Positions 24,080 through 54,114 of a stretch of 64,000 bases of DNA are shown in pieces. Each line of letters begins with the position of its first letter. Position 1 is the first letter of the stretch. The notes under the pieces are model-generated. The model saw only the letters and a program-made list of their open reading frames with translations. It was not told where the DNA came from and made no database searches. Where the stretch lies: sequence record KX828711; one strand, given 5' to 3'. This DNA is from Shigella phage SH7. The translations under genes were made by a program, and so were the position numbers.

Positions 24080-24109
24080 ATAGTACCATGGAAGAACAGT
24101 CTTGTAAAC
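24080..24109 (-). promoter_or_regulatory. early promoter with conserved TGGTACTATACAACTATC core
   Basis: near-identical copies at 48812..48841 and 54085..54114. Confidence 0.6.
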
Positions 24110-24197
24110 AAGTTTTGTGAAAAATTTTTTAGGGAATTCTAAAGGTCCAGAATCATCTGTTTTTCATAAGTATAGATTTATATTACTTGTATGAAAA

Positions 24198-24215
24198 AGG
24201 GACCCGGAGGTCCCT
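24198..24215 (-). terminator. GC hairpin 3' of gene 43
   Basis: agggacc-cgga-ggtccct. Confidence 0.55.
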
Positions 24216-24227
24216 AGATTTATTCTA

Positions 24228-26924
24228 TCAGCCAAATAGGAAGTCTAACGAAGCTTTTTCTTCATAGTCCATACCAGCCGATTCACACATACCCGCAAGC
24301 GGTTTAACAAACGATTTTTGGAACAAAGTTGAGTAGTCAATCCAAGATAGTACATCAGAACGAATTTCTTTTGGAAGTTCTGTACCCGACGGCCAAGCAA
24401 TGCACTTATCACCAAATGGATTTCCTTCACGTAATGGAAGAACCATTACCTTATTTCCATCCAAAATTGGAGCTACACCCAGACCACTAACAGCTCGACG
24501 ATAAGTTAGCACACCACGAATATGGAATGGGCATTTAAATCCTGGCCAACCTTTATCATCATATTTCGCTATATCGTTCGCAGTTTTTACTTCAGCAATA
24601 ACTTTATAGTCGAGTTGACGATATTCTTTCTCGAAGTTCTTGTAATATTCTTGGACAGACTCTTCACCTTCCTGAAGAATACGACGAATACTTTCTTCGA
24701 GAGCTTCTTGCACTGCCTTTGGTGTTGAACTCTGCTGAGTTTCCATACCCATGATTTTTAGATGTGGTTCAGCAAATCGTTTATCTTCCATATCATAAAC
24801 GTTCAGAGCATAACGTTTTTTCGCTTTCCAAAATCCACCAACACCCTTTGAACCAAGCGGAGGGCAAGAAATAGCTTCACGGTCCATATGCATCAGATGC
24901 TCGCGGTTATTCATATAATCACATAACTCACGATATGCAACATCAATCATAGGTTCCATCTTTTTCTTACCGAACTGATTCATGAATTCAACCAAATCGT
25001 TCTGCTCTTTGAATCGGTCAAGACCAACTTTTTCAATAACTTTATCTACACAAACATATACCGAATCAGTATCACCTGCTGCAATGAAATCTTCATCATT
25101 AGTTCCGCATACTTTATTCAGATATTCATTAATTTTACGAGCAATCCACTGAATACCGACTTGGCCAAAAATTGTGATAGCAGTAGCATTTCGCAAATCA
25201 TAGTAACGGAAATGAATATTACCAAGAGCACCATAAAGACTGTTAATAAGAATTTTACGGTTCAGCTGATTTGTATTAGCGAGTGTAGCCGCTTTTTCAC
25301 ATTCTTCAATTAGACTATTGAGAACAGATTCAGTATAATTCGATAGTTCATTTAAGAAATCATCACTGAACTTAACATATCGTTCAACTTCTGGTTTAGT
25401 TGAACAAGACCCTGCGCCTTTCATAATAATCTTTTTAATAGCTTCGGCATTCATTTCTTCAGCGAACATTTTCTTTTTCCAGTCTTTACGCTGGAAAAAT
25501 ACTTTAGCGATTTCCTTTGGAATGATACCTTCTTGATGCTTATCATACATCCATCCATTCGGAGAACAAGAATATTCATCACTCGGTTTAGGAGCTGTTC
25601 CTGCGATATATTCATGAATTGGATGAACTTTAAACTGTCCACGAATAGTCTCAGGACTAATGTTAACTTGACGAATAATGCTCGGATACAGAGACGTCAA
25701 GTCAAAACTCATAATATATCGACGAGCAATTGGTTTAGGTTCAAATACAAATGCACCCGGAAAACTTTGTTTAACGTGCGAACCTTGTTGAGGAATAACC
25801 TTGTGTTCACCTTTCAATGAGTTAAAAATAATAGCATCCCAAGTTTTAATAGGACTCATTACACCAGAAAAAGGCATTTTAGCATAATAAGACATACTTA
25901 AAACTAGATCGATAAACCCGCGAATTTTATCAATTGCTTGAACTGATTCTACGTCAATGATGTTATAACTAATGTATCGTTGATGATTAGTCTCACGAAG
26001 TTTATTAATAGGACCGTCGTATGGTAATTTACCTTTTTTGGTTTCATGTTGAGCAACTGATTCCAAAGAGAATGACGGCAAATTAGTAAATGCGAATTTC
26101 TTATACAAATCTAAATAATCAAGAATAGATACGCCATCAATAGAATAAATTTCTTTGCTACCATACATATTTTGAATTAGTTTAGATTTTACTCGACCGA
26201 TTGGAGAGAAACGTTTCATACTGCGTTCGCCCAGAATCATTTTAACACGATTCATGATATATGGAACGTCAAACCCCTCAATATTCCAACCAGTAAAAAT
26301 AGCAGGTCGTTTCTGTTCCCAGAGATTGATATATTCCATGAGCATATCACGCTCATTATCGAATGGCATATAAATTACTCGGTCAAGAATTTCTTGAGGA
26401 ACTTCATCACCACCTTCACAGTCAAGCTTAGCAGCTAACTTTGCATCCCATTTTGATACTGAACCATACATTGAATTCAAAAGGTCGAAAACATAAAAAC
26501 GATCGTCAATTGAATCATAATGAGTGATAGCATCAATTTCATATTCTGCTTTCATTGGGTCAGGAAATTTATCACCAGTAACCTCAATGTCACAGTTAGC
26601 TACACGAACAAATTTTCGGTCATAAACAATTTCTGAACCATATGTATCACTGATATAAGCGAGTTTAAAATCGTTCATACCGAGAGCTTCGAGACCGATG
26701 TCTTCCATTCGCTTCATCCAATCTCGCGCATCTTTCATTGATGGAAATTTTTGAGGAGCACAGTTTTTACCATAGATGTCTTTGTATTTTGACTCTTCCT
26801 TACAATGCCTAAACATAGTCGGAAGATATTCTACTTCACGCGTACGTTCCTTTCCGTTTTCATCAATATAACGTTCAACAATATTATTTCCGACTGTTTC
26901 GATAGAGATATAAAATTCTTTCAT
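24228..26924 (-). CDS. 43: DNA polymerase (family B)
   Basis: 898 aa; exo motifs DIE, YGDTDS polymerase motif; recognised T4-type gp43. Confidence 0.95.
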   Translation of the reverse strand: MKEFYISIETVGNNIVERYIDENGKERTREVEYLPTMFRHCKEESKYKDIYGKNCAPQKFPSMKDARDWMKRMEDIGLEALGMNDFKLAYISDTYGSEIVYDRKFVRVANCDIEVTGDKFPDPMKAEYEIDAITHYDSIDDRFYVFDLLNSMYGSVSKWDAKLAAKLDCEGGDEVPQEILDRVIYMPFDNERDMLMEYINLWEQKRPAIFTGWNIEGFDVPYIMNRVKMILGERSMKRFSPIGRVKSKLIQNMYGSKEIYSIDGVSILDYLDLYKKFAFTNLPSFSLESVAQHETKKGKLPYDGPINKLRETNHQRYISYNIIDVESVQAIDKIRGFIDLVLSMSYYAKMPFSGVMSPIKTWDAIIFNSLKGEHKVIPQQGSHVKQSFPGAFVFEPKPIARRYIMSFDLTSLYPSIIRQVNISPETIRGQFKVHPIHEYIAGTAPKPSDEYSCSPNGWMYDKHQEGIIPKEIAKVFFQRKDWKKKMFAEEMNAEAIKKIIMKGAGSCSTKPEVERYVKFSDDFLNELSNYTESVLNSLIEECEKAATLANTNQLNRKILINSLYGALGNIHFRYYDLRNATAITIFGQVGIQWIARKINEYLNKVCGTNDEDFIAAGDTDSVYVCVDKVIEKVGLDRFKEQNDLVEFMNQFGKKKMEPMIDVAYRELCDYMNNREHLMHMDREAISCPPLGSKGVGGFWKAKKRYALNVYDMEDKRFAEPHLKIMGMETQQSSTPKAVQEALEESIRRILQEGEESVQEYYKNFEKEYRQLDYKVIAEVKTANDIAKYDDKGWPGFKCPFHIRGVLTYRRAVSGLGVAPILDGNKVMVLPLREGNPFGDKCIAWPSGTELPKEIRSDVLSWIDYSTLFQKSFVKPLAGMCESAGMDYEEKASLDFLFG

Positions 26925-26982
26925 AGATATTCCTTAGTTTATAGCCCGAGTTATTAGGCTCTTGATATATTATACTCCAAAT

Positions 26983-27000
26983 AAGGGGCCGAAGCCCCTT
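26983..27000 (-). terminator. UUCG-tetraloop hairpin 3' of regA
   Basis: aaggggc-cgaa-gcccctt. Confidence 0.6.
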
Positions 27001-27002
27001 GC

Positions 27003-27371
27003 TTAATTACCAATCGTATATTTAGGAACGAGTTTCCATTCATGTTTTTGTTTAAAAGAAATAACTCGGAAGTTATTAGTTAAATCTTTCATAAAAGTTC
27101 TTTGACCAGGAACGATTTCAATCAGTCCCCAATCTTCTAATAGCCATGCAATCGAATCACGACGAACTTCATCTTCTTCTGTCATTTCAACTTGGCGACC
27201 ATCCATACGAAGCATTTCTTTAAAATGAACGATATAGTATAGTCCTTTTTTCTGAAGAATATGACAGGACTGATACAGAACTTTATCTTTATTATTAGCA
27301 ATTCCCATACGAGTCAAAGTTTCTTTTACTTTCAGAAAATCTTCAGGTTTTTTAAGAGTAATTTCAATCAT
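27003..27371 (-). CDS. regA: RegA translational repressor
   Basis: 122 aa; position 3' of 62; size matches. Confidence 0.75.
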   Translation of the reverse strand: MIEITLKKPEDFLKVKETLTRMGIANNKDKVLYQSCHILQKKGLYYIVHFKEMLRMDGRQVEMTEEDEVRRDSIAWLLEDWGLIEIVPGQRTFMKDLTNNFRVISFKQKHEWKLVPKYTIGN

Positions 27372-27372
27372 T

Positions 27373-27957
27373 TTACCATTCCAATGCTAGTTTTTTGAGT
27401 TGTTTCTGTTCTTTTACGTTCTTAGTCACTTCTTTCAAAAAATCATCCGTGACTAAACCTTTTAGTTCTTTTAATACTAAAGGTAGTTTTCCGTTTTTAG
27501 TAAGAATTGATTTATAGTTAATTGCATCATTTGTATTAACTTGATACCGTTTAGCAAGTAACTTAATAATCAATACTTCGGTGGAATCTTCAACCAGTTT
27601 TGCCCATTTACCATATCTTTTACCACGAGGAACTGCAGCCATTAGATAATTAAAATGAGCTTCATCACTTAATCCAGAACCGATTAAATTCATTGCATAT
27701 ACAGCTGGCATGCACTCTGGAAATTGTGATAATGCATTTTCAACCATGAATTTTGAATAATCCTTTTGAGCAATAGAGCATTTAGTTTTATTATTAATAG
27801 CTCCAATTATTTCAAAAAATTCATTTTCAGCTTTTTCTTTAAAAGAATCAGCAGCGGATTGGACAGCTGTCCAATCTTTTGAATACCAAGCAATTTGATG
27901 CTCGTTTAATTGAATATCATCTTCAAATAAGCTCATATCACTTCCACTGCATTTCAC
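27373..27957 (-). CDS. 62: clamp-loader small subunit
   Basis: 194-aa ORF between 44 and regA. Confidence 0.75.
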
Positions 27958-28912
27958 ATGCTAATTGAATGAAAAGATAAGCTAGATGCAATTCAGTATT
28001 AGCTGCAATACCATGATACTGATTATTTTCGCCGACAATTTCGTACATACGAATAATACTCTGTGGAGTTACACGTGAATAAATTTCTTCGGCAAGTTTA
28101 CCCACGAACCACGAATAATCAGCTGCATATTTTGGTGCTAAAGCTCTGAGTTGTTTAACATCTTTATTTTTGAGAGACTCAAGAACATCATCAATAGCAC
28201 CACGATCGTTAGTAACCAGTGATAAAATACCAGCATCCAAAACACCTTTAGATGAATAACTATCGAGCTCGCCAATAGTTTTACGAAAATCAGGAAAATT
28301 CTTTTTAACCAAAGCTGCTACAACTTTCATATCAGCTATAGCAATTCCTTCACGCTTGCAGATTTCAGTCAATCGACGAATCATCTGCTTCATCATTTCA
28401 ATTTTATCTTCATCGGTCGGTTGACCGAATGTAATAACTCGACAGCGTGACTGAAGTGGTTTAATAATACCATCAATATTGTTAGCAGTAATAATAATAC
28501 TACAGTTTGAACTATAAGCTTCCATAAAGGAACGAAGATGTCGCTGAGACTCTGCTAGCCCTGAACGGTCAAATTCATCAATAACAATTACTTTTTGACG
28601 ACCATCAAATGAAGCGGCGCTGGCAAAATTAGTCAAAGGACCACGAACGAAATCAATTTTACAATCTGACCCATTCACAAACATCATATCAGCATTTACA
28701 TCATGACACAATGCTTTTGCTACAGTTGTTTTACCTGTTCCTGGAGAAGGAGAATGAAGAATAATATGTGGAATCTTACCTTTACTTGTAATAGATTTAA
28801 AGGTTTCTTTATCAAAGGCGGGAAGAATACATTCATCGATAGTAGATGGACGATATTTCTGTTCAAGAATGTGTTCTTTTTCATTTACGGTAATCATAAT
28901 TTCCTCATTCAA
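27938..28912 (-). CDS. 44: clamp-loader ATPase (RFC-like AAA+)
   Basis: Walker [11 protein letters not shown], Walker B VIVIDEFD. Confidence 0.9.
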
Positions 28913-28931
28913 GTTTTAGTGTAAATTATAA

Positions 28932-28945
28932 AGGGCCGAAGCCCT
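28932..28945 (-). terminator. UUCG-tetraloop hairpin 3' of gene 45
   Basis: agggc-cgaa-gccct. Confidence 0.55.
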
Positions 28946-28948
28946 CTA

Positions 28949-29635
28949 TTAAAAATCGTGGGTAGAATCAGCTTCAAGAGCTACTACATAATTCGCATGT
29001 TCACCTTCAAATTTAGCAGCACCTTGTTTACCTTTTGCCCAGAGCAGAAGTTTATAATTTCCTGGTTGCATTTTCATATTTGCCATATTGATAATGAAAT
29101 TAAATGTATTTTCACCATCATAATCACCAAGAGTCAAAGAATATTTAACACGGGTTAAAGCAGAATCTTCTACTTTATTAAAACCGTTGATTACGATTTT
29201 ACCTTCTTTTACCGTGATAGCAATTGTATCAATTTGCAGACCACGAGATACACGCAACAGTTGTTGAAGGTCTTCAGCTTTAATTTCAGTAACAACAGAT
29301 GCTACCGGGAATGGAATTGGTTTATTAGGAGCAACTACTGTACTCGGATCGGCTGCTGGCCAAAAAATTGTTGAGCGGGCATCAGCAATTTTAATATTTC
29401 CATCTTCTGACTGGGAAATTTCTGCATCATCATTAACCAGAGACAGAATACCGAGAAAACCGTTCAAATCGTAAATTGCTACATCAAAATCAATAACGTC
29501 AGAAATATTTGCTTCCGCATAAGTTGTACCATTAACTGCACGAGTCATAATAAATTGACCTGATTTAAGCATAATACCGGAGTTAATAGTAGCGAAATTT
29601 TTAAGCAGAGCAGTAGTATCTTTAGACAGTTTCAT
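28949..29635 (-). CDS. 45: sliding clamp
   Basis: 228 aa; recognised. Confidence 0.9.
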   Translation of the reverse strand: MKLSKDTTALLKNFATINSGIMLKSGQFIMTRAVNGTTYAEANISDVIDFDVAIYDLNGFLGILSLVNDDAEISQSEDGNIKIADARSTIFWPAADPSTVVAPNKPIPFPVASVVTEIKAEDLQQLLRVSRGLQIDTIAITVKEGKIVINGFNKVEDSALTRVKYSLTLGDYDGENTFNFIINMANMKMQPGNYKLLLWAKGKQGAAKFEGEHANYVVALEADSTHDF

Positions 29636-29664
29636 GTAATTTCCTTCAATTCAAATGAGATTTA

Positions 29665-29689
29665 ATTTTATAACTAATTTAATAAAGCA
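29665..29689 (-). promoter_or_regulatory. middle promoter (MotA box TGCTTTA plus -10 TATAAA) for gene 45
   Basis: minus strand ttGCTTTAttaaattagtTATAAAAT. Confidence 0.5.
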
Positions 29690-29690
29690 A

Positions 29691-30080
29691 TTAACGATTA
29701 AAATCAGCCGCAATTGTTTCCGCAACAATTTGAGCAGCAACAATTAGACGTTCATCTGCATTACCGCAATAATCATCTTCAAGGCGTTCACCGCATGAAG
29801 TCATAATAAATTTAGCACCGGCGTTTAGGGATTCTGTAGTATGTTTGCGCATTAGTTCAATCCATTTATTACTCACTTCACGATCGATAGCTTCATAATA
29901 CGCATGACGAGCAGGTGCAGATTTAATTTTGTTCTGAATAACTTCCATTGCGTTATCAGAAAGAGACAAAACCCATGCTCGACGAATTTTATTTTGGTTT
30001 TGTGGATTTGATTCAGAACGCACGTGTTTTGGCTGAATATCTTTTACATCAACAGTATAATTCACAGTAATTTTAGTCAT
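29691..30080 (-). CDS. rpbA: RNA polymerase binding protein
   Basis: 129-aa ORF between 45 and 46. Confidence 0.55.
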
Positions 30081-30089
30081 AATACACCT

Positions 30090-30290
30090 TTAGTCATAAT
30101 AATCAGTAACAGTCCAAGCTTCATTTCTATTGGACATTATTTTTGTATATTCTGCTTTAAATGCATTCCTAAGCATAGATTCAGTAACTATATGCTCTTC
30201 ATTAGAAAAATTATTTCTCAGAATATATCGTTTTATTTCAGGAATAGTTAATAGATGCTGTCCAGTTGAATATTCCATGTTTTCCTCCAT
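30090..30290 (-). CDS. small hypothetical protein
   Basis: 66-aa ORF. Confidence 0.4.
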   Translation of the reverse strand: MEENMEYSTGQHLLTIPEIKRYILRNNFSNEEHIVTESMLRNAFKAEYTKIMSNRNEAWTVTDYYD

Positions 30291-30332
30291 AGAGATTATA
30301 CTCTAATAAATTAAAGCATAATCTCTTATAAA

Positions 30333-32015: not shown

Positions 32016-32275
32016 AAAAGATTCCTTTTAATGTATCTTTTAGACCATTCTATCATATCATCATAATCTAAAAAGTATTCATCAAATTCAGCCATGCAAA
32101 CAACACCTTGTGCTGCTTTTGATGTGATATAAATTATTCCAACATATCTAGAATCTTCTTCGGTGTAATCAATATTTGCTATGAATTCATCATTAATGTC
32201 AAATGTCGAAAACTTCACAGTATGCATCCTTAATACAAGATACAGCCATATCTTGTAATGATTTAGGTGTGTCAT
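32012..32275 (-). CDS. small hypothetical protein
   Basis: 87-aa ORF; partly overlaps next ORF. Confidence 0.35.
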   Translation of the reverse strand: MTHLNHYKIWLYLVLRMHTVKFSTFDINDEFIANIDYTEEDSRYVGIIYITSKAAQGVVCMAEFDEYFLDYDDMIEWSKRYIKRNLL

Positions 32276-33478: not shown

Positions 33479-33615
33479 ATATCAAGAACCGTCATTGAAA
33501 TGCAAAATAAAATTATTGAAATAAATCCATCTGGAGTGCTAAAGAACCCAATCCAACATGCTCTAGTGAATAGATAAAATGCAAGAAAAAGTATCACATA
33601 TCCAAAAAATATCAT
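33477..33615 (-). CDS. 46-aa hydrophobic peptide
   Basis: own translation MIFFGYVILFLAFYLF...; ATGA overlap with gene 47 start. Confidence 0.25.
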
Positions 33616-33638
33616 TATATCAAACTCCGTATAAAGCT
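33614..33638 (-). promoter_or_regulatory. middle-type promoter (AGCTTTA, 12 nt, TATAAT) directly after hairpin
   Basis: same hairpin-plus-promoter architecture as at 4292..4334. Confidence 0.4.
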
Positions 33639-33656
33639 AAAGGGCCGAAGCCCTTT
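33639..33656 (-). terminator. UUCG-tetraloop hairpin 3' of alpha-gt
   Basis: aaagggc-cgaa-gcccttt. Confidence 0.6.
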
Positions 33657-34857
33657 ATTTTGTAATAATGTCAAACTGTTCTTTAAAGCAGAAGCTTGAA
33701 TCTTGATGCTGATACAAAAATTCATATGCTTTTTCTCGCTCACGGTCATAAAGAGTTCGGTCAGATGACAGTTCTTTAATACGCTCGAATGTTGATTCCA
33801 TGTCATTTTCATCAAACCAAATGATACCGCTATCATGCGAGGTCAAAGGAGTATTATCAACACGGAATTTTAAATTTTCGCCAGTAGATTTCCAAAATAC
33901 CGGAATTGTTCCACATGCACCAAGCTCGAGATGAGTATATTCTAAAGAGCGCTGTAGATATTTTTTATCCAACTTACTCAACTGATAACCAAATCCGGAT
34001 TTACTCATGCGTTCAAGCATTTCGCTATTTACATAACGGTCAAGAATTTGCGTTGGCAAATTAGGAGCAATTTTAATTTGGTCTACTTGATGAAGACGAT
34101 AATACTCGTATGGAATTCCTTTTTCTTTAATAGGAATGAATGCTGGAGAACGTTCCAGACCTTCCATAATAGTACTTAGTCCTGCAGGTTTAAGATGTTT
34201 TTCGTGAAAATCAAACATCTGGTAAAAACCTTTCCATGTAGTCGTACGACCAATCCATCGATTGACATTCATGTTAATTTCAGAAACATCTTTCCAGTAG
34301 GTTGACCGAACCTTCGCAATATCCATAGGAGGCTGAAAGTTATATACGGTCGGCGCTTCTTCAATATCATCAAACAGAGAAACAGTTTCTGGATACCATT
34401 CTTTCATCAGAACTTTATTAAAATCACCATTATCAGAATGGCTAAAAATAACATCAGCTCGACGAACAGTTTCTTCTAATCCCAAATTTCGGCGCAAAGA
34501 AAGAGAAGAGTGGTCATGTTGATAAACTACAACACGAACCGAAGGTTTAATGTTATCAATAATTTTTTTATAGTTATTAATAGTGTCTTCTTCAACTGAA
34601 GTAGCAGGAACTGAATTGATAATTAGAATATCACAATCATTTACCAGCTTAAGTGTTTTATCGTATTCTTTTGCCAATAAAACCGGAATTGAAAATGATT
34701 TATAATCATGTGCACAGTTACGAGTAAATGATTTATCTTTAGCATAAACCAAAGTTACTTCATGACCATTTTTAATAAACCAATCACGTTGCTCAAGAGA
34801 AAATTTAGTTACACCACAACCTTCAAGACCCCGAGCCATAAAAATACATACTTTCAT
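33655..34857 (-). CDS. a-gt: DNA alpha-glucosyltransferase
   Basis: 400 aa; size identical to T4 alpha-gt; GT-B-like. Confidence 0.7.
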   Translation of the reverse strand: MKVCIFMARGLEGCGVTKFSLEQRDWFIKNGHEVTLVYAKDKSFTRNCAHDYKSFSIPVLLAKEYDKTLKLVNDCDILIINSVPATSVEEDTINNYKKIIDNIKPSVRVVVYQHDHSSLSLRRNLGLEETVRRADVIFSHSDNGDFNKVLMKEWYPETVSLFDDIEEAPTVYNFQPPMDIAKVRSTYWKDVSEINMNVNRWIGRTTTWKGFYQMFDFHEKHLKPAGLSTIMEGLERSPAFIPIKEKGIPYEYYRLHQVDQIKIAPNLPTQILDRYVNSEMLERMSKSGFGYQLSKLDKKYLQRSLEYTHLELGACGTIPVFWKSTGENLKFRVDNTPLTSHDSGIIWFDENDMESTFERIKELSSDRTLYDREREKAYEFLYQHQDSSFCFKEQFDIITK

Positions 34858-34881
34858 TTAATATCCTCATTGTTTTGGTTT

Positions 34882-34905
34882 ATTTTACCAAAAATTTATA
34901 AAGCA
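34882..34905 (-). promoter_or_regulatory. middle promoter (MotA box TGCTTTA, 11 nt, TAAAAT) for alpha-gt
   Basis: minus strand tATTGCTTTAtaaatttttggTAAAAT. Confidence 0.45.
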
Positions 34906-34910
34906 ATATA

Positions 34911-34924
34911 GGAGCCGAAGCTCC
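34911..34924 (-). terminator. UUCG-tetraloop hairpin
   Basis: ggagc-cgaa-gctcc. Confidence 0.55.
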
Positions 34925-35097
34925 TATCCGCATAATACGCCATACAAAGGCTCATTAGAGCTTCTAAATTTTCTGTGCTTATATGTTATAGTTCCTTCTG
35001 CTTTAGCTTTATCATGAGACTCTTTAAAGCGTCTCATCATTTCTACTTTAGAGGAACGAATTTTATTATAATCTATTTCAGAAGTCTGGGTGTTCAT
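34924..35097 (-). CDS. 57-aa basic peptide
   Basis: own translation MNTQTSEIDYNKIRSSKVEMMRRFKESHDK...; not in track. Confidence 0.3.
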   Translation of the reverse strand: MNTQTSEIDYNKIRSSKVEMMRRFKESHDKAKAEGTITYKHRKFRSSNEPLYGVLCG

Positions 35098-43280: not shown

Positions 43281-43281
43281 A

Positions 43282-46885: not shown

Positions 46886-46893
46886 AGTGTTCC

Positions 46894-47799: not shown

Positions 47800-48200
47800 T
47801 TTTCAATTTTACTAAATACGCAGAATATGATGGAAAAGACTATATAAGCACCGCACACAGATTGAACTAATACCATTCCAAAGAACCAAACAATATTATC
47901 AAACAATGTCTGTTTTACGTCGAAAGGACGTAAACTTACAGTAATATTATCACCTTTTTCTATTGAAGAATACATCTCTGGGGAAATATATTCACTAAAT
48001 CTATAACCGTCTTTTAGTTCATATACGGCAATAAACGATAAACTAGACCCTTTTCCTTGTGTTCCCGTAATGGTATTAACTACAGTAACATCATAATCTT
48101 TATAATGCATATAATCATTAATTGCGTAATAACCATATGCAACTACTGCACATAAACAACATATCAATAAATTCAATCTTTTAATTACCAACTGTTTCAT
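47796..48200 (-). CDS. membrane protein (two TM)
   Basis: 134-aa ORF. Confidence 0.45.
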   Translation of the reverse strand: MKQLVIKRLNLLICCLCAVVAYGYYAINDYMHYKDYDVTVVNTITGTQGKGSSLSFIAVYELKDGYRFSEYISPEMYSSIEKGDNITVSLRPFDVKQTLFDNIVWFFGMVLVQSVCGAYIVFSIIFCVFSKIEN

Positions 48201-48255
48201 AATAATCTCAATTAAAAGGGCTTAGAACCATTATACCATCCTTGGTATAAAGCGG

Positions 48256-48783
48256 TTATGCGAGTACCGTCTTTAACCGTTCTTCAAACTTCCGAAGAGT
48301 ATTCTGGCGTTCAGCTCTTTGCTTTTTGTAAGTTTCAATACGCTCTGAAATGAGAGTGTATCGTTCATTTACTGATTCTTTCATAAAATCAGGAATTTCA
48401 CGAGAAGCTTTAATCTCATCAAATTTATCAATAACAGCTTGCTCTTCAGCAATTAAGTTATCATACATCAAAATATCTTTCTTGATGAACTCAATATCTT
48501 CTTGAGTTACACGAGATAATTTAGATGCTTTATCCTTTTTGTACTGTTCGTTAGTATCACGAGACCAGTGTAATGTACGATTTTTATTCGTATTCTTATA
48601 AATTTCTACAATACCAATCTCATCAATAATAACGATCCAATTCCAACGGGATTTGTAAATTTGTCCTCCATCAACAGTGATTTCACCTCCGATTGAGATG
48701 TCATTAAAGAACTTGCTTTGTGCTTCAGATTTAAATTTACCATCGTTGTAATTTACCAGGTTGAAAATATCTTTAGCGTTCAT
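48256..48783 (-). CDS. hypothetical protein
   Basis: start at Met 21 (MNAKDIF); upstream residues are translated promoter. Confidence 0.45.
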   Translation of the reverse strand: MNAKDIFNLVNYNDGKFKSEAQSKFFNDISIGGEITVDGGQIYKSRWNWIVIIDEIGIVEIYKNTNKNRTLHWSRDTNEQYKKDKASKLSRVTQEDIEFIKKDILMYDNLIAEEQAVIDKFDEIKASREIPDFMKESVNERYTLISERIETYKKQRAERQNTLRKFEERLKTVLA

Positions 48784-48811
48784 TTTGTGTTCCTCCGTAG
48801 TTGATAGTTGT

Positions 48812-48841
48812 ATAGTACCACAGAGGAACGGTCTTGTAAAC
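48812..48841 (-). promoter_or_regulatory. early promoter, conserved TGGTACTATACAACTATCAACTA core
   Basis: near-identical to copy at 24080..24109. Confidence 0.6.
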
Positions 48842-48843
48842 AA

Positions 48844-49146
48844 CTAAAAGAAACTTCTTTCACAATTTTTTCCACTGAACCACGCACTCACTGCTTTCTT
48901 AGTCTCAGGAGCAGTGTTATCCATAAACCATTCAAAGGCAGCCTTTTTATGATTCTGGAGGGCTTCTCGGGCTTTAATCTGCTCACGGTCTATTAACACT
49001 AACATATGAGCCTTTCTTGTCACCAGGGGCTTCTTATGATTTTTTGAATACTCCCAATCATTTGTCCATCGCATCGTTGTTGCGAATTGAAGTACAGCTT
49101 CCTTAATCTTAGTTTCGTAAATTTCACGAGCCTTTGAGTATAACAT
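48844..49146 (-). CDS. hypothetical protein
   Basis: start at MLYSKAR with GGAGG SD. Confidence 0.4.
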   Translation of the reverse strand: MLYSKAREIYETKIKEAVLQFATTMRWTNDWEYSKNHKKPLVTRKAHMLVLIDREQIKAREALQNHKKAAFEWFMDNTAPETKKAVSAWFSGKNCERSFF

Positions 49147-49247
49147 CACTACCTCCATTTACCAGTTTAATTCTAATCATCTTTTTGATGGCAGTCCATA
49201 TAATCTATTTCTGAACTGCCTTTTTGTCATAGAAGGCCTCTTATGAA

Positions 49248-50216
49248 TTATTTCAGAAGAGTAACCTCAGCAATTTCTTCCCAACCGTTTTTGTCGGTCA
49301 TAATAAAGTCAGCAAGATAAAGTGCAGTACGCAGTGAAACATTGCGTAAACGATTAACATTAACTTTCATCCATGATAATGCTTTATAAGTTTCTTCATC
49401 AGAAAGACCACGTTTTTGCATCATGTCAGTTGAAAGAATAACATCTTCAACCCTGACCATAATTTCTTCATTAGTGTGAACACCCAAATCTAAATAAACT
49501 GAGCGGGACACTAATGCTTGTAAATGTGGAGCAAGTTTAGTACCACGGTCTAATTCGCGGTCAATGTCAACGTTTGTGATAAAAACAATCGTTCCTTTAA
49601 ATTCAAACTCACGCTCAATGCCTTTTTCTTCTAAGTAAGAAGATGCGGTGCTCCAGCAGACTTTACGGGTCTCTCCAGTGTCCAGAGCAGCTTTCAGAAG
49701 ATTAAGAATGTCCATATCAGAGAAAACATCCACATCATCAATCAAAAGGACAGAATTCTCTTCACGATTATTCCAAAGCTGTTCATAAAGACCGATACCA
49801 GAGATTTTACCATTAATGCTTTTATACTCAATGTATCCAATATCATTTGCTTTATTTAAAGCTTTATCTAAAGAATACGTTTTACCAATACCTGCTGCTC
49901 CCGAGATAATTAATGAACGAATGTTTCCGTTAATAATACCATTCGTCATCATTCCCATAACATTAAATCTTTTATTAATGCGGGTTTTCATATCTTCATA
50001 CGATTCTTTAACTTCTTCAACTTTTACACCATCATATGAAATGTCTGATTTGTAAACCCAAACACCGCGACGTTTACCGTCAATTTCAACAAAAACTTTA
50101 CCATCTCCTTGTGCATCTACCGGAGCATTATCTGGGAACCATTCGCCTAAGAGCTCAAAAGTTCCAGAGATTTCTTTACCGAAGTAGATACCCTTATTGA
50201 TAGTTACAGTTTTCAT
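49248..50216 (-). CDS. P-loop ATPase (AAA-like) with about 100-aa N-terminal domain
   Basis: Walker A SGAAGIGKT, Walker B VLLIDDVD. Confidence 0.55.
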   Translation of the reverse strand: MKTVTINKGIYFGKEISGTFELLGEWFPDNAPVDAQGDGKVFVEIDGKRRGVWVYKSDISYDGVKVEEVKESYEDMKTRINKRFNVMGMMTNGIINGNIRSLIISGAAGIGKTYSLDKALNKANDIGYIEYKSINGKISGIGLYEQLWNNREENSVLLIDDVDVFSDMDILNLLKAALDTGETRKVCWSTASSYLEEKGIEREFEFKGTIVFITNVDIDRELDRGTKLAPHLQALVSRSVYLDLGVHTNEEIMVRVEDVILSTDMMQKRGLSDEETYKALSWMKVNVNRLRNVSLRTALYLADFIMTDKNGWEEIAEVTLLK

Positions 50217-50273
50217 TTTATTCTCCTTTGATTTGATAGGACTACTATAACATAGTCCTATCAGTTTGTATAC

Positions 50274-50474
50274 TTATTTTGACATTTCTTCGATGTCACG
50301 ACGATACCCGTCACGAACTTCACGAAGAGCTTCAAGGCCACACATAGGCTCGATACCTGTAATGTGAACTTGATTAATCTGATACTCTACATCTTCTAAC
50401 TGAGCGAAAACATAACGACGTTCAGCTGCACAACCAGATTTAGCTTTACCGAAACGTTTATTCAAAGTAGTCAT
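50274..50474 (-). CDS. small hypothetical protein
   Basis: 66-aa ORF with own early promoter. Confidence 0.4.
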   Translation of the reverse strand: MTTLNKRFGKAKSGCAAERRYVFAQLEDVEYQINQVHITGIEPMCGLEALREVRDGYRRDIEEMSK

Positions 50475-50512
50475 TTTGTATCTCCAATTTACTCATTTGT
50501 TTTGATAGGTCT

Positions 50513-50542
50513 ATAGTATCAACAACTACAGACCATGTAAAC
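50513..50542 (-). promoter_or_regulatory. early promoter (TTTACA, 17 nt, TACTAT)
   Basis: sequence. Confidence 0.55.
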
Positions 50543-50569
50543 CGTTTTGTGAAAAATTTTTGAAATAAA

Positions 50570-50587
50570 AAAGGGAGCCCGAAGGCT
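50570..50587 (-). terminator. intrinsic terminator: UUCG-tetraloop hairpin plus U-run
   Basis: gggagcc-cgaa-ggctccc followed by T6 on minus strand. Confidence 0.65.
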
Positions 50588-50592
50588 CCCTA

Positions 50593-51606
50593 TCATTTAT
50601 AATAACTTCGATGGTTTTCAAGATAGACCTTCTCAAGGAAGTCATCCCAAAAACCCATGTCCACTTTTTGCTGCATACCGTTCTTAGAAGCTTCAGTAGA
50701 TGCTGCTTCTACTTGATCGACCACATCTTCCAAAAACTCTTGAACGGTTTTAAATGGATGTTTACCCAACTTCACGTCGAGAATAAATGGAGCATCTTGG
50801 AGTGGATAAACCAAGTCACCAGTTTTGTAAATTTCCAATAGTTGAAGTCCACCACGACAGGCATGGCTCAGAGCTTTCCAGTCAATGCCTTCGTTGGCTT
50901 CGGCCTTACGAGCACGTTCACCATATTCAGCATCTAATTTGTTCAGTGACTGCTTAAGCTCAATAAGAGAAAGCGTTGTCTGATATTTACGACCCAACAC
51001 AGTGTAAAACGTTTGTGGGCCTGTTTTCTCATGATTATGGAACACCCATTCACAGAATTCGTTTTCTGGAAGACGATGCTTAATATCTTCAACTTTGGTG
51101 TGACGCTGCTTAATAGAACCATCTTCTTGGTAATCAATCCACTGCTCAGGGATTTGATTAACTATTTTCAATACATCGCGTAATGCAGCCAAACGAGAAC
51201 CCTTGACACCGTATTTAGAAGCTTGCTTGCGAACATATCCTAAATAGGATTTCATGTTAGTCGTATAAAAACGAGAACGGTTGTCTTGAATAAACTTCCA
51301 CACATCAGGCAAATCAGATTTAACCACTAGTTCAGGTGGAGTGTGAAGCATATCCAATGCTACAGTTTCACCATCTGCTGCTAATTTAAAGAAATATTTA
51401 AGACTGTATAGTTCATGGTCAATATCATCTTTAGTGTTTTTAGATGATGTGTTGTTAGTGTTTTTACTCATGTGCTCTTTAACATTTCCAATAAGAATAT
51501 CACGAGCAGGAGGAACAAAAATTTCTTTAAAATCTACATCAGATTCTGGGGTAGAAGTTCCATAAAGATGACTACCAAAATAGCTTTTCATTACTGTTTT
51601 CATCAT
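50593..51606 (-). CDS. Pol-beta-superfamily nucleotidyltransferase-like protein (337 aa)
   Basis: N-terminal signature YFGSHLYGTSTPESDVDF (hGS-x9-SDxD); helical C-terminal domain; specific family undetermined. Confidence 0.5.
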   Translation of the reverse strand: MMKTVMKSYFGSHLYGTSTPESDVDFKEIFVPPARDILIGNVKEHMSKNTNNTSSKNTKDDIDHELYSLKYFFKLAADGETVALDMLHTPPELVVKSDLPDVWKFIQDNRSRFYTTNMKSYLGYVRKQASKYGVKGSRLAALRDVLKIVNQIPEQWIDYQEDGSIKQRHTKVEDIKHRLPENEFCEWVFHNHEKTGPQTFYTVLGRKYQTTLSLIELKQSLNKLDAEYGERARKAEANEGIDWKALSHACRGGLQLLEIYKTGDLVYPLQDAPFILDVKLGKHPFKTVQEFLEDVVDQVEAASTEASKNGMQQKVDMGFWDDFLEKVYLENHRSYYK

Positions 51607-52064
51607 TCAGCCTTATATTCAATAACAGGACATACTTTAGCTTTACGAGATTTTAAAAATTCAACGATAATCGATTTCTTGGGTTGAATAGGAGGTAAAC
51701 CTTTATACGCTCTATCAATATTTTCTACGTGTAAAGCATAATCCTTTTTCCATTTATAATCTTTATATTTTTCACGCAAATGTGCAGGAATAACAAATGA
51801 ACCGATAATAAGTAAAACAACCAAAAGCGCAAGTATAAATGCTGATGGAAGCAAAGTCCATAAACTACCAAAAATAAGCCAACGTTGTAGGCTTTCTGCA
51901 CAAATAATTGTTAGCCCTACGAGTATAGCACATCCAAAAATAGAAACGAAAAATGTAGGAATGGCAATAGACCAAAAATATGCGCATAGTGTCTTAGGTC
52001 GTTGCCATTCATCGTTAAACAATTTGAATAATTTATAGTGCCAAGAGTTTTCATTAATAATCAT
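51603..52064 (-). CDS. multi-pass membrane protein, translationally coupled to the NTase gene
   Basis: 153 aa; two long hydrophobic blocks; ATGA stop/start overlap. Confidence 0.45.
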   Translation of the reverse strand: MIINENSWHYKLFKLFNDEWQRPKTLCAYFWSIAIPTFFVSIFGCAILVGLTIICAESLQRWLIFGSLWTLLPSAFILALLVVLLIIGSFVIPAHLREKYKDYKWKKDYALHVENIDRAYKGLPPIQPKKSIIVEFLKSRKAKVCPVIEYKAE

Positions 52065-52066
52065 AA

Positions 52067-52588
52067 TTATCCTTTCATTGAAGGCGTAACAGTTGTTAAA
52101 TACTTAATCATAGCTTCAGCTTCTGATTTTGATAATGAAATTTCTCCATTGTTTTGACGAATAGAAATAAAATCCGGATGACGGTCACCACCAGCTTTTA
52201 AAACACACATATAAGTATCAACTTCATCTTCAATATTTGAAATGATTGAAGCAGTTCCACATGAATGCGGTTTTTGATAAATCAATGCAGCTTTTCTTCC
52301 GCCATTTGACTGTTCATAAACTTTTAATACATCAAACAAATCACTTCTTTTATCAATAGCTAAAATGTTATTTTCATCTTCAATGTTAAATCCTTCGGAT
52401 ACTTCATAAAGTGTCACCCATAAATCGCCAATATCAATAACAGCGTTCACTTTTCCATGACTTTCAAGAGCATGACAAATTTTCTTGATTTCGTCATAAC
52501 TCATTTTAATAATATCATCTCCTTGAATAAGAAAGATGTCATTTTTAAATTCAACACGAATTAAACCACTTCCACTTGAAATAAACAT
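52067..52588 (-). CDS. hypothetical protein, tandem paralog A
   Basis: 173-aa ORF; shared motifs with next gene. Confidence 0.45.
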   Translation of the reverse strand: MFISSGSGLIRVEFKNDIFLIQGDDIIKMSYDEIKKICHALESHGKVNAVIDIGDLWVTLYEVSEGFNIEDENNILAIDKRSDLFDVLKVYEQSNGGRKAALIYQKPHSCGTASIISNIEDEVDTYMCVLKAGGDRHPDFISIRQNNGEISLSKSEAEAMIKYLTTVTPSMKG

Positions 52589-52594
52589 ATTTCC

Positions 52595-53140
52595 TCACTT
52601 TGAAATCATAGTTGGAATGACAGAATCAAGATAAGTCTTTAGTGCAATAGCTTCGTCTTTGGTAAATGTGACAATATGTGCTCGAAAATCATCAATTTGA
52701 CGAATAGTTAAGACATCTCCATCTTCATAACATTTTGATACGTTTAAAACAGTTTCATCATTCTGATCGCAAGCGTTAGTAATAATAGCATTGCAATTTT
52801 TAAACCATTTTAAACTATGTTTTCTTTCATTAGAATAATAAAAATATTTAATCTTATCTATAAAACTATCCCAATGGATAACTGATAAGCATATTGACTC
52901 GCTTTCAATATTAAATCCTGGGCATGAAGAATAAAAATGAATTTTATGCTCATCATTAATGCTTACAATTTTATCAGTATAAGGATTTTCAATTTTGGTT
53001 AAATGAATGATTTCACTAGGCGTAAAATACAGCATATCGTCTTCTTGTGTCAAACGATACATATTATTTACTTTTTCTATAGCCAATTCACCAAAAAGTG
53101 AACTAACTTCTAATACTAATCGTTTCGCCGCTACCGTCAT
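52595..53140 (-). CDS. hypothetical protein, tandem paralog B
   Basis: 181-aa ORF. Confidence 0.45.
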   Translation of the reverse strand: MTVAAKRLVLEVSSLFGELAIEKVNNMYRLTQEDDMLYFTPSEIIHLTKIENPYTDKIVSINDEHKIHFYSSCPGFNIESESICLSVIHWDSFIDKIKYFYYSNERKHSLKWFKNCNAIITNACDQNDETVLNVSKCYEDGDVLTIRQIDDFRAHIVTFTKDEAIALKTYLDSVIPTMISK

Positions 53141-53272
53141 TACATACTCCTCTGAATCATATCAATAATGTTGTTCACCAGATTATAAGTAAACATTGGG
53201 TAATTATATTGAATCACCACATACACAACAAACAAAACTTTCATTCTCTTCTCCTTGGCAGTTGACAAGATT

Positions 53273-53302
53273 ACTATACCATAACCTTGCCAACTTGTAA
53301 AC
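53273..53302 (-). promoter_or_regulatory. early promoter (TTTACA, 17 nt, TATAGT) heading the 53.1-50.6 kb operon
   Basis: sequence. Confidence 0.55.
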
Positions 53303-53467
53303 CATTAAATGACGTTTTCGATAAAATTCTGAAGCTTTGTATGAGCATCAACCATGATTTTCATTTCTTCCTTTGCGAAAGCTGTACCTCTTTCACGAGA
53401 AGAACATTCATAGTCAGAAACTGCATTAGCATATTCTTCAATTAGCTTCATTAAAAACATCTGCTTT

Positions 53468-53662
53468 TCAGTTTTCATTATTCCACCTAATCATTTCAAG
53501 ATATTGAACTAACTTAGCTTTGGATTTATCCAAATCCTTTTTAGCTGCTTCTATACCGTCGTATGAATATCCTTCACAATGCTCAACTGCTAATTGATAT
53601 GAATCTATTTCAATATCACGTGCTAATTTAATGATTTTTTCAAACTGTTCGCGTGTTAGCAT
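53468..53662 (-). CDS. small helical protein (M-x-T/S-R/K-EQ family)
   Basis: 64-aa ORF. Confidence 0.4.
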   Translation of the reverse strand: MLTREQFEKIIKLARDIEIDSYQLAVEHCEGYSYDGIEAAKKDLDKSKAKLVQYLEMIRWNNEN

Positions 53663-53664
53663 AC

Positions 53665-53868
53665 TTAAACTCTCGTATTATGATCGATAATTTCATCAAG
53701 AAACATATCTAACGCTTCTACAGCATTATTAACTTTATCTTCAAGTTCTTCAATACTTTTATTTGCAATGCCTGACGAAAACCAAGCAAAGTCACTAAGT
53801 TCCTCATCTGCTTTACGAATTAAAGCTACCAATTCCTTAATTTTATCCGCTTGTTCGATACTAATCAT
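53665..53868 (-). CDS. small helical protein (same family)
   Basis: start at internal Met [13 protein letters not shown]. Confidence 0.4.
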   Translation of the reverse strand: MISIEQADKIKELVALIRKADEELSDFAWFSSGIANKSIEELEDKVNNAVEALDMFLDEIIDHNTRV

Positions 53869-54056
53869 TATTCCACCACATATGAAAGAGAGAATATTGC
53901 ACACGCCATGTGAGTTGCAACTTCATCACACATATTATAACGTTTCTTAAGAAATTCTACAAGTTCTTCACTAGTAACTTCATCCATGTCGACGAAAAAA
54001 TCACCATTAATGATGACGTAGATATTTCCTTCTTGATTAAGTGCTTCAATTTTCAT
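53868..54056 (-). CDS. small acidic protein
   Basis: start at Met 16 MKIEALNQ; upstream is promoter. Confidence 0.4.
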
Positions 54057-54084
54057 GATGTTCTCCTCTTTATCCGATAGTTGT

Positions 54085-54114
54085 ATAGTACCACAGCTCA
54101 AACGGAAAGTAAAC
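54085..54114 (-). promoter_or_regulatory. early promoter with conserved TGGTACTATACAACTATC core
   Basis: third copy of the conserved cassette. Confidence 0.6.

Follow-up and report, generated by a model that had tools for sequence, protein, structure and literature searches.

Near-identical early promoter-leader cassettes at three loci of Shigella phage SH7 are PeSL-type elements, probably recombining at some sites and stable at others

The 64,000-nucleotide stretch of Shigella phage SH7 DNA analysed here (record KX828711; hereafter the window) is a Tequatrovirus (T4-like) segment running from the rIIA to the e region with its genes on the minus strand, and it is matched by ~500 Tequatrovirus genomes at 95-98% identity. 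We found that three of its sites, upstream of imm.1 (locus 1), nrdC.8 (locus 2) and mobD.5 (locus 3), form one paralogous sub-family of promoter-leader cassettes, the core of which comprises TGn, the -10 element and the first ~9 transcribed bases. The repeats are genuine copies of a presumably strong early promoter-leader cassette of the PeSL (promoter-early stem-loop) type, an ordinary and already known class of element that sometimes marks sites of small-gene swapping. Their sequence match and their T4 orthologs make it probable that each serves first to drive the immediate-early transcription of the gene that follows it, and its translation. We consider it very probable that the trio are sigma70 T4-type early promoter-leader cassettes which undergo PeSL-type recombination at some sites and are stable at others, and that the UUCG-hairpin modules of the window are a separate class. 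The features are listed in Table 1; gene names at the loci were taken by mapping onto T4, RB14 and PST.

Table 1. Promoter cassettes, modules and hairpins located in the window
Feature	Coordinates	Strand	Remark
Cassette 1, early promoter and leader of imm.1	24043..24135	-	
Cassette 1 AT-rich UP region	24110-24135	-	
Cassette 1 -35 GTTTAC	24104-24109	-	then 17-nt spacer
Cassette 1 TGn and -10 TACTAT	24080-24088	-	
Cassette 1 shared core	24071-24088	-	predicted +1 near 24073
Cassette 1 SD GGAG; imm.1 ATG	24052-24055; 24043-24045	-	
Cassette 2, early promoter and leader of nrdC.8	48781..48867	-	
nrdC.9 stop codon	48844-48846	-	within cassette 2
Cassette 2 -35 GTTTAC	48836-48841	-	
Cassette 2 -10 TACTAT; core	48812-48817; 48803-48820	-	
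Cassette 2 nrdC.8 ATG	48781-48783	-	
Cassette 3, UUCG hairpin, T-run, early promoter and leader of mobD.5	54054..54147	-	
Terminator-type UUCG hairpin	54130-54147	-	behind rI.-1; T-run next
Cassette 3 -35 GTTTAC	54109-54114	-	
Cassette 3 -10 TACTAT; core	54085-54090; 54076-54093	-	
Cassette 3 mobD.5 ATG	54054-54056	-	
Mobile module, nrdC.11/nrdC.10 junction	50214..50591	-	bounded by promoters
nrdC.11 UUCG terminator	50572-50591	-	
Module early promoter 1: GTTTAC; -10 TACTAT	50537-50542; 50513-50518	-	
66-aa ORF, PHROG 6200	50274-50474	-	no assigned function
Module early promoter 2: GTATAC; -10 TATAGT	50268-50273; 50244-50249	-	within 12-bp hairpin
nrdC.10 ATG	50214-50216	-	
329-bp module	17844..18174	-	early promoter (-10 at 18128) and 84-aa ORF (17837-18091)
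regB early promoter (-10 TATAAT 58474-58479)	58425..58545	-	downstream partner of T6 deletion
Early promoter (-10 TAGTAT 61502-61507)	61450..61570	-	upstream of internal-protein genes; upstream partner of T6 deletion
UUCG hairpin and P39 ortholog	4285..4334	-	upstream of fused gene 60+39
P39 hairpin; -10 TATAAT	4317-4334; 4292-4297	-	MotA box TTAGCTTTA
UUCG hairpin and P47 ortholog	33607..33657	-	
P47 hairpin; -10 TATAAT	33638-33657; 33614-33619	-	MotA box TAGCTTTA
UUCG hairpin and PmobB (Pα-gt.1) ortholog	34875..34927	-	
PmobB hairpin; -10 TAAAAT	34908-34927; 34882-34887	-	MotA box ATTGCTTTA

The conserved core that a sequence-only reading had reported at three promoters proved to be the 18-mer TGGTACTATACAACTATC, present in three exact minus-strand copies where ~0.1 matches would be expected by chance even with three mismatches permitted. 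In each copy it provides the TGn, the -10 and the initial-transcribed part of a sigma70-type early promoter (GTTTAC-N17-TACTAT), with starts predicted near 24073, 48805 and 54078; the 30-nt intervals given in that reading do span the -35 to the -10 of each site, but stop 9 nt short of the end of the core. Its near-identity of about 50 nt for two of the promoters was also recovered, as loci 1 and 2 are identical at 42 of 46 positions, from TTGTTTAC through CAACTA, with an exact run of 23 nt, whereas locus 3 has merely 18-21 nt in common with them. The spurious GTIQLS peptide that it had noticed was seen again in three mechanically called ORFs, 23665..24111, 48256..48843 and 53868..54101.

Orthologous, near-identical promoters lie at the same three loci of T4, at 27.04 (27042-27059), 53.9 and 58.7 kb; the T4 record is without promoter annotation with which the early sites could be compared. 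Within T4 1-72 kb the core is found four times exactly and once with one mismatch, and the cassette 3 core has one mismatch in both T4 and RB14. Complete IMG/VR contigs carry 5-8 copies each, and across T4-like genomes the core precedes at least 12 different, unrelated genes, motA and e.8 among them. The trio is not unique, since sub-families just as tight exist among the window's other early promoters, for example 2423/45839 (97% identity from -35 to -10) and 18616/53278/50249 (83-87% identity).

T4 early promoters are reportedly listed by Miller et al. in 2003 and by Wilkens and Rüger. Their 'über-promoter' architecture of UP/-35/TGn/-10 (reviewed in Hinton, 2010, PMC2988021) is shared by the window trio; however, the trio has TACTAT at the -10 where the consensus has TATAAT, and the initial transcribed sequence ACAACTATC characterises the sub-family and lies outside the general consensus. 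A potential explanation for the similarity that would not need to invoke any special role in recombination is that it is purely functional, reflecting selection for strength, timing or regulation; a common initial transcribed sequence and leader would, for example, give the same kinetics to imm.1, nrdC.8, nrdC.10, mobD.5, e.8 and motA. Orthologous sites do keep the core invariant while the spacer varies, synteny is fixed at loci 2 and 3 (497 records each), and conserved information outside the -35, TGn and -10 is known from T4 early promoters. However, the initial transcribed sequences vary freely among the window's other 16 early promoters, crossovers map inside promoters (those of the T6 deletion and of the modules in T2 and JK45, described below), and chimeric cassettes occur. 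Cassette 3 is such a chimera, as its upstream half (UUCG hairpin, T-run and -35) is 90% identical over 41 nt to a cassette at 14756-14796 and its downstream half is of the core type; the slur07 imm.1 cassette has a spacer of the nrdC.8 type. We regard function as the sole explanation as improbable, although functional selection and recombination are not mutually exclusive.

PeSLs were described for RB49/phi1 by Arbiol et al. (2010, PMC2839356); crossovers there were placed in the interval from the -10 to the SD/ATG, and mini-circles were also observed. In 2014 the T4/PST pair followed, with the consensus TTTACW-N17-TAYWAT plus an AT-rich region and SD+ATG (Comeau, Arbiol & Krisch, 2014, PMC4122927), and the idea of modular shuffling is therefore not new. 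The consensus fits all three window sites, and the likeness to PeSLs drawn in the sequence-only reading holds for every structural feature: the AT-rich region, the sigma70-like -35/N17/-10, a stem-loop upstream of or over the -10, and the 3' SD+ATG. The cassettes further resemble PeSLs in being repeated many times in direct orientation in early, hyperplastic regions, in having crossovers between the -35/-10 and the ATG, and in that two copies flank small ORFs of unassigned function. Nothing essential separates the two; in the window the cassettes are tied to 5 of 31 indels and to one of the three named loci, on sequence evidence.

Each of the three sites consists of an AT-rich UP region, the -35 GTTTAC, a 17-bp spacer and the extended -10 TGgTACTAT, fused to a short leader, SD and start codon. 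In the recombination mechanism that we favour, the cassettes act as dispersed, near-identical DNA of 20-100 bp in direct orientation. Because such direct repeats are nearly identical and T4 homologous/short-homology recombination is very active, an occasional crossover might join two cassettes, or one cassette to a repeat at a start codon. Small ORFs lying between the crossover points would be deleted, inserted or replaced, each swapped ORF travelling with its own promoter, as in the published PeSL mechanism. Probable traces of such events are seen in the T6 regB/internal-protein deletion and at three places in the window, namely the imm.1 cassette, the nrdC.11/nrdC.10 junction and 17.8-18.2 kb.

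The three loci behave differently. At imm.1, a 78-aa RB51ORF048-like ORF lies between the cassette leader and imm.1 in 29 of 43 full-length hits from a spread sample, and copies of an 8-bp repeat, ATGAAAAT, at two start codons flank the indel, which can therefore be explained without a second promoter. A megablast search with this region returned second places in most genomes, and one isolated hit consisted of the 66-nt cassette stretch alone. At nrdC.8, 497 of the 655 matching records cover the locus in one uninterrupted piece, and at mobD.5 497 of 501 do so, with no indel in those 497 in either case. We conclude that these two cassettes are stable, vertically inherited promoters; the proposal that the cassettes flag recently mobile genes survives at imm.1 only, since invariance of cassette-flanked loci across relatives, as seen at the other two loci in those 497 records, was what the sequence-only reading had named as refuting it.

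Elsewhere in the window, sequence comparison shows promoter cassettes bounding swapped modules. At the nrdC.11/nrdC.10 junction, T4, PST and T6 have one core-type cassette instead of the module containing the 66-aa ORF, and T2 has a different, 161-aa ORF with repeated UP/-35 sequence on its flanks (direct UP/-35 repeats lie either side of ORF T2_95). Phage JK45 carries the 66-aa ORF module at another locus, in the e.x region, at ~96% identity; the homology begins at the -35 of promoter 1 and ends at the ATG that follows promoter 2, and the flanks are unrelated. The 329-bp module is missing from T4, PST, T2 and T6, and both of its boundaries are the upstream edges of early promoters. In T6, a 3,012-bp deletion joins the regB and internal-protein promoters into a hybrid promoter, with the crossover in CTGTTTACTTT. 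The internal-protein region of the window (60.6-61.5 kb) is deleted in T6 and differs from those of T4, PST and T2. As recounted in PMC4122927, Repoila et al. (1994) found T-even internal-protein genes shuffled between conserved flanking motifs; in that account conserved regulatory and leader sequence likewise brackets variable genes, but the shared segment at the internal-protein locus takes in a coding capsid-targeting leader.

Modular shuffling receives partial support. When the window was compared with four genomes (T4, PST, T2 and T6), only 5 of the 31 indels touched an early promoter, 9 were homing-endonuclease gene insertions, and ~17 fell at junctions without an early promoter, mostly plain ORF-ORF boundaries. 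It could be argued from these counts that the promoters are bystanders, adjacent to indels only in that both occupy intergenic space, with homing endonucleases and illegitimate or microhomology recombination acting at any gene boundary. The ATGAAAAT repeat used by the imm.1 indel and the position of mobB directly behind a middle promoter fit this explanation, as does the modest enrichment of breakpoints at promoter-bearing junctions (10/19 vs 30/103, odds ratio just 2.7, one-sided p = 0.044). However, in four of the 31 events each endpoint falls in a promoter cassette, no more than 50 nt either side of an early -10, where a rough estimate that assumes random fall on gene junctions gives ~0.75; the T6 crossover lies within shared promoter sequence, and promoter-cassette elements bound the JK45/window module on both sides despite the unrelated flanks. 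We consider it unlikely that the promoters are bystanders.

Roughly half of the early promoters have their -10 bracketed by inverted repeats, and these repeats might instead act at the RNA level. In read-through RNA the spacer would pair with the leader, and sometimes with the SD, so that the downstream gene would be attenuated or left untranslated; a gene active only from its own promoter would make the cassette an insulated expression unit. The segment from spacer to ATG folded with z < -2 in 11 of 19 promoters, as did 7 of the 104 gene starts used as controls (Mann-Whitney p = 3e-5), and for 8-9 promoters the cognate spacer:leader pair came first among the 19 (permutation p <= 5e-5). In cassette 2, the arms of a 13-bp inverted repeat (48817-48829 and 48789-48801) place the -10 in the loop and the SD GGAGG under the 3' arm (-20.8 kcal/mol, z -3.9). 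The 3' arm also covers the SD at motB.2 and at regB, where the promoter spacer shows complementarity to the leader and SD of regB itself. Pairing is kept by paralogues with different arm sequences, and the Mosigvirus nrdC.8 ortholog brackets its -10 with a different repeat. There are precedents in T4 e, soc, 49 and I-TevI, whose initiation regions are sequestered in read-through transcripts with the promoter inside the hairpin (Uzan & Miller, 2010, PMC3014915). As in those genes, the 5' arm precedes the start site in nrdC.8, regB and motB.2 and the 3' arm lies over the SD, and the ribosome-binding site should therefore be free only in transcripts from the proximal promoter; the published promoters are late (or middle) with early read-through, whereas here the embedded promoter is early and the effect is predicted. 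Against an RNA-level role, loci 1 and 3 lack significant structure, the 3' arm stops short of the SD in five of eight clear cases, and stem-loops overlapping the -10 were already noted by Arbiol et al., who took them as terminators or attenuators (PMC2839356). We view such a role as possible but somewhat doubtful.

The modules in which a UUCG hairpin precedes a promoter belong to a different class, in which a stable C(UUCG)G hairpin ends the upstream gene and is followed by a MotA-dependent middle promoter. A promoter does follow the hairpin at all three places named in the sequence-only reading, but these could not be retained as early promoters: a MotA box replaces the -35 element, which makes them middle promoters, and they correspond to the mapped P39, P47 and PmobB/Pα-gt.1. 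As in T4 MotA/AsiA middle promoters, the spacing between the MotA box, (a/t)(a/t)(a/t)TGCTTtA, and the -10 downstream of it is 12±1 bp, and the predicted T4 starts (5349, 36576 and 38681) agree with the published sites (5349, 36576 and 38682) within 0-1 nt. The P39 module is identical in sequence in T4, and at P47 the MotA box is overlapped by the 3' arm of the hairpin. In T4 the homing-endonuclease gene mobB is inserted just downstream of the PmobB start site, at a breakpoint equivalent to window positions 34848-34873; as mobB is absent here, the ortholog, unlike T4 PmobB, would drive a-gt directly. Hairpins of the C(UUCG)G type in T4 intercistronic regions are said to have been described by Tuerk et al. 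in 1988. Those of the window show no difference from them, having a G+C-rich stem and a C-G pair closing the UUCG loop and lying between genes on the transcribed strand. The window has ten intergenic C(UUCG)G hairpins, six of which are followed by a promoter.

Megablast searches with two stretches of the window matched about 500 Tequatrovirus (T4-like) genomes at 95-98% identity, and comparison with annotated T4, RB14, PST, T2 and T6 showed that the window spans rIIA to the e.x genes. Since nearly all of its genes lie on the minus strand, its features are read on that strand. The sequence-only reading had proposed near-identical early-promoter cassettes at three loci, and this was borne out: the 18-mer core TGGTACTATACAACTATC, comprising the TGn element, the -10 and the initial transcribed bases, has three exact copies (see the table), where about 0.1 matches would be expected by chance even with three mismatches tolerated. 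Every copy lies inside a canonical T4 early promoter (GTTTAC, 17-bp spacer, TGn, -10 TACTAT) and is followed by a short leader, a GGAG-type Shine-Dalgarno (SD) sequence and ATG. The gene at locus 1 is imm.1, just 3' of gene 43; that at locus 2 is nrdC.8, with the -35 motif beginning 3 nt past the nrdC.9 stop codon; and that at locus 3 is mobD.5, downstream of rI.-1 and of a terminator hairpin with a UUCG loop. No promoter annotation was present in the T4 records NC_000866 and AF158101, which were checked for the early sites.

The near-identity claimed for two of the cassettes was found between loci 1 and 2, which have a 23-nt exact run in common and, over 46 positions running from the -35 into the leader, agree at 42. 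Locus 3 has only 18-21 nt in common with either; its upstream half is instead 90% identical over 41 nt to another cassette at 14756-14796, and locus 3 is therefore a mosaic. The three core cassettes form one among several tight sub-families within the 19 strong early promoters of the window. We also reproduced the spurious common N-terminus (...GTIQLS...) that had been noted in unrelated ORFs; the lesson for annotation is that mechanically called ORFs beginning in such cassettes gain a false common N-terminus.

Promoter-early stem-loop elements (PeSLs) were defined in RB49/phi1 as an AT-rich region, a sigma70-like promoter and a stem-loop, followed by an SD sequence and ATG; the stem-loop mostly lies between -35 and -10 or over the -10, where it was read as an attenuator, crossovers were mapped between the -10 and the SD/ATG, mini-circles arising from PeSL-PeSL recombination were detected, and in vivo promoter and terminator activity and mini-circle formation were followed by reporter assays and inverse PCR on infected cells (Arbiol et al., 2010, PMC2839356). 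They were later extended to the T4/PST pair, with the consensus TTTACW-N17-TAYWAT, and phage nt-1 has middle-promoter versions, PmSLs (Comeau, Arbiol and Krisch, 2014, PMC4122927). The resemblance of our cassettes to PeSLs held up. Loci 1 and 2 have the promoter sequence TTTACA-N17-TACTAT and locus 3 has TTTACT-N17-TACTAT, with TGn ahead of the -10 in every case; AT-rich sequence is present at locus 1 (AAAAAATTTTTCACAAAAC), at locus 2 (GGAAAAAATTGTGAAAGAAGTTTCTTTTAG, which falls within the 3' end of nrdC.9) and at locus 3 (the T-run 3' of the hairpin); GGAG or GGAGG lies 6-9 nt upstream of ATG at all three; and the element is multi-copy, with the three exact cores and the further promoter sub-families. 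As for the stem-loop, a 13-bp stem encloses the -10 in its loop at locus 2 (z -3.9), and at locus 3 a 7-bp UUCG hairpin ends 15 nt before the GTTTAC motif. No significant structure was found across the locus 1 promoter (z +1.3), and the nearest hairpin there is the gene 43 terminator, GGGACCTCCGGGTCCC, starting about 90 nt upstream of the -35. Because the window features match the published description, both the kind of element and its proposed role were already known, and nothing in the window findings exceeds published knowledge.

Three modules in which a UUCG hairpin is followed by a promoter had been named alongside the early-promoter cassettes. A hairpin followed by a promoter was indeed found at all three; the promoters are of the middle class. 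After the C(UUCG)G hairpin none has a -35; instead, a MotA box ((a/t)GCTTTA) precedes a good -10 by 11-12 bp. This agrees with the definition of T4 middle promoters, which lack a -35 and whose MotA box, (a/t)(a/t)(a/t)TGCTTtA, has its centre at -30 and is separated by 12±1 bp from a good -10 (Hinton, 2010, PMC2988021). Two modules match T4 exactly and the third almost exactly, and the +1 positions predicted for the three in T4 coordinates, 5349, 36576 and 38681, coincide with the mapped starts of P39 (5349), P47 (36576) and PmobB/Pα-gt.1 (38682) (Hinton, 2010, PMC2988021). Judged by this correspondence, the three modules are these known MotA-dependent middle promoters. The window has ten intergenic C(UUCG)G hairpins in all, on the minus strand and with G+C-rich stems of 6-9 bp, three of them upstream of early promoters, three upstream of middle promoters and four upstream of neither; CTTCGG occurs 32 times against 12 expected. 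Hairpin-plus-promoter modules need to be sorted into early and MotA-dependent ones before they are read in evolutionary terms.

Core-type cassettes are spread among relatives. In T4 the exact core lies upstream of imm.1, nrdC.8, nrdC.10 and e.8, with a one-mismatch copy upstream of mobD.5, and RB14 has a similar distribution. An IMG/VR scan gave 27 stretches with the core, on few T4-like contigs, and 5-8 copies per genome in complete relatives; taking IMG/VR, the window and T4 together, the core precedes at least 12 unrelated genes, motA included. The sequence that copies have in common often runs from the UP element to ATG. In phage slur07 the imm.1 promoter is chimeric, with the nrdC.8-type spacer AAGACTGTTCCTCTG joined to an imm.1-type leader, which is consistent with exchange between cassettes of different loci. 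On IMG/VR contig 2974787500_000001, two core-type cassettes have neither T-run nor UP element nor -35, and their spacer or core directly adjoins the terminator hairpin upstream; given this loss, both are probably dead promoters. A further family member in the window combines the core variant TGGTACTATATCAATATC with a weak -35 (TATACA) and an e.8-type leader; the 89-aa ORF behind it carries an internal deletion in T4, PST and T6.

We surveyed indels and replacements of at least 40 bp by chaining BLAST alignments between the window and T4, PST, T2 and T6. Of 31 distinct events, five have an endpoint within ±50 nt of an early -10, four of them both endpoints. Homing-endonuclease insertions (mobA/gene 60, segF, segA, mobB, mobC/segH, I-TevII, mobD and seg-/mob-like genes) account for nine, and the rest fall at plain gene boundaries or in ORF interiors. 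Overall there is a modest enrichment at promoter junctions: 10 of 19 promoter-bearing gene junctions were struck, as against 30 of 103 others (odds ratio 2.7, one-sided p = 0.044). A 200-bp difference at 5485-5686, behind the TGGTACTATATCAATATC cassette, was considered as a sixth promoter-linked event and rejected, since what the alignment reveals is not a cassette crossover but the loss of an internal part of the 89-aa ORF in T4.

The proposal that cassettes mediate modular exchange stands in part. Exchange at such cassettes is real in the window, with clear promoter-bounded events. First, T6 lacks 3,012 bp carrying vs.3-vs.8 and the internal-protein genes, and at its deletion junction the promoters at 61507 and 58479 are joined into a hybrid, with the crossover within CTGTTTACTTT. 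Second, the module of a 66-aa ORF with a promoter on either side, which occupies the nrdC.11/nrdC.10 junction of the window, has a copy, about 96% identical, in the e.x region of phage JK45; the homology there, set between unrelated flanks, extends from the -35 of the first promoter as far as the ATG that follows the second. Third, a 329-bp promoter and ORF module is missing from T4, PST, T2 and T6. The nrdC.11/nrdC.10 junction is a hot spot: T4, PST and T6 have a single core-type cassette there, T2 a 161-aa ORF between direct repeats of UP/-35 sequence, and two IMG/VR contigs a 49-aa ORF. The 66-aa ORF belongs to PHROG 6200, a family with no assigned function, and PHROG searches with the cargo ORFs returned solely families of unknown function.

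The named cassettes are not reliable markers of mobile cargo. Locus 1 does mark it: in T2, slur07 and RB51 an extra 78-aa ORF (RB51ORF048-like) lies exactly between its leader and imm.1, at a junction bracketed by the 8-bp repeat ATGAAAAT. This ORF is present in 29 of 43 full-length matches from a spread sample of about 500 genomes and absent from the window, T4, PST and T6. We considered whether the gene at the imm.1 cassette in several IMG/VR contigs is an alternative imm.1 allele; the slur07 and T2 annotations place it as an extra ORF ahead of imm.1, and the reading as an allele was rejected. At loci 2 and 3, by contrast, no variability was found: one indel-free piece spans the 901-bp cassette-centred query in 497 of 655 and 497 of 501 matching records, respectively. 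An indel or replacement thus adjoins the cassette at locus 1 and at four other promoter pairs, and not at loci 2 and 3. We conclude that one more Tequatrovirus genome confirms a second role of early promoters, as portable homology for gene shuffling, within the limit that most cassettes, including two of the three flagged ones, are stable and that most indels between close relatives arise otherwise, chiefly through homing endonucleases and at plain ORF boundaries.

About half of the strong early promoters carry an inverted repeat that places the -10 in a hairpin loop. The fold from spacer to ATG had z < -2 against dinucleotide shuffles in 11 of 19 early promoters; among 104 control gene starts, 7 did so (Mann-Whitney p = 3e-5). 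For 8-9 promoters the cognate spacer:leader pairing was the top one of 19 (permutation p <= 5e-5); the pairing that brackets the -10 is specific to cognate spacer and leader. A different repeat brackets the -10 in the Mosigvirus ortholog of the nrdC.8 promoter. A literature search found no reports of dyad symmetry at T4 early promoters. The 3' arm overlaps the SD at nrdC.8 (locus 2), regB and motB.2; SD sequestration as a general role was rejected, as only these three of the eight clear cases fit it, and loci 1 and 3 do not. In read-through RNA the promoter spacer would pair with the leader, the paired stretch including the SD at nrdC.8, regB and motB.2, so that a hairpin-bearing gene would be expressed solely from its own immediate-early promoter. 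The predicted occlusion would parallel that in read-through RNA of T4 e, soc, 49 and I-TevI (PMC3014915). It is conceivable, if rather doubtful, that T-even early-promoter cassettes are self-insulating expression units, an insulation that could let promoter-ORF modules move between loci while they and their neighbours leave each other undisturbed. The cognate-specific hairpins offer a small, testable lead on how T-even early genes may be insulated from read-through transcription.

Positions of the cassettes, modules and other features (window coordinates unless stated)
Feature	Position	Strand	Detail
Core, locus 1	24071-24088	minus	imm.1
Core, locus 2	48803-48820	minus	nrdC.8
Core, locus 3	54076-54093	minus	mobD.5
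-10-bracketing hairpins	-10 at 6338, 7440, 18128, 18616, 48817, 50249, 53278, 58479	minus	
Hairpin module	4.3 kb	minus	TTAGCTTTA-N12-TATAAT
Hairpin module	33.6 kb	minus	TTAGCTTTA-N12-TATAAT
Hairpin module	34.9 kb	minus	ATTGCTTTA-N11-TAAAAT
TGGTACTATATCAATATC cassette	5700-5800; T4 6592-6609		
slur07 chimeric promoter	L031 ~1300-1400		
Cassettes lacking T-run, UP element, -35	L016 3284-3301; L029 2819-2836		
T6 deletion endpoints	58504 and 61517; T6 (L037) ~10996-11013		
66-aa ORF two-promoter module	50214-50545; JK45 NC_054940.1 (L039) ~2480-2800		
Promoter and ORF module	17844-18174		329 bp
Gene 60+39 fusion	2447-4264		605 aa
Gene-content difference	15693-15714		
Gene-content difference	21583-22530		
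Internal-protein leaders	61078-61131; 61412-61465		54 nt
54-aa ORF	16953-17117		similar segment 17087-17117

Some features of gene content were also noted. Genes 60 and 39 are fused in the window, which thus lacks both the mobA insertion and the gene-60 bypass segment; dam, segF, segA, mobB, mobC, mobD and the nrdD intron are absent as well. In place of T4 b-gt, a 280-aa ORF occupies the position of the beta-glucosyl-HMC-alpha-glucosyltransferase gene of T2, T6 and PST. Both internal-protein genes begin with a common RBS and N-terminal leader (MKTYQEFI...; 89% identity), which resembles the T4 capsid-targeting sequence. The 54-aa ORF at the position of 61.1 begins MKTYKEFIKE, like the internal-protein leader.
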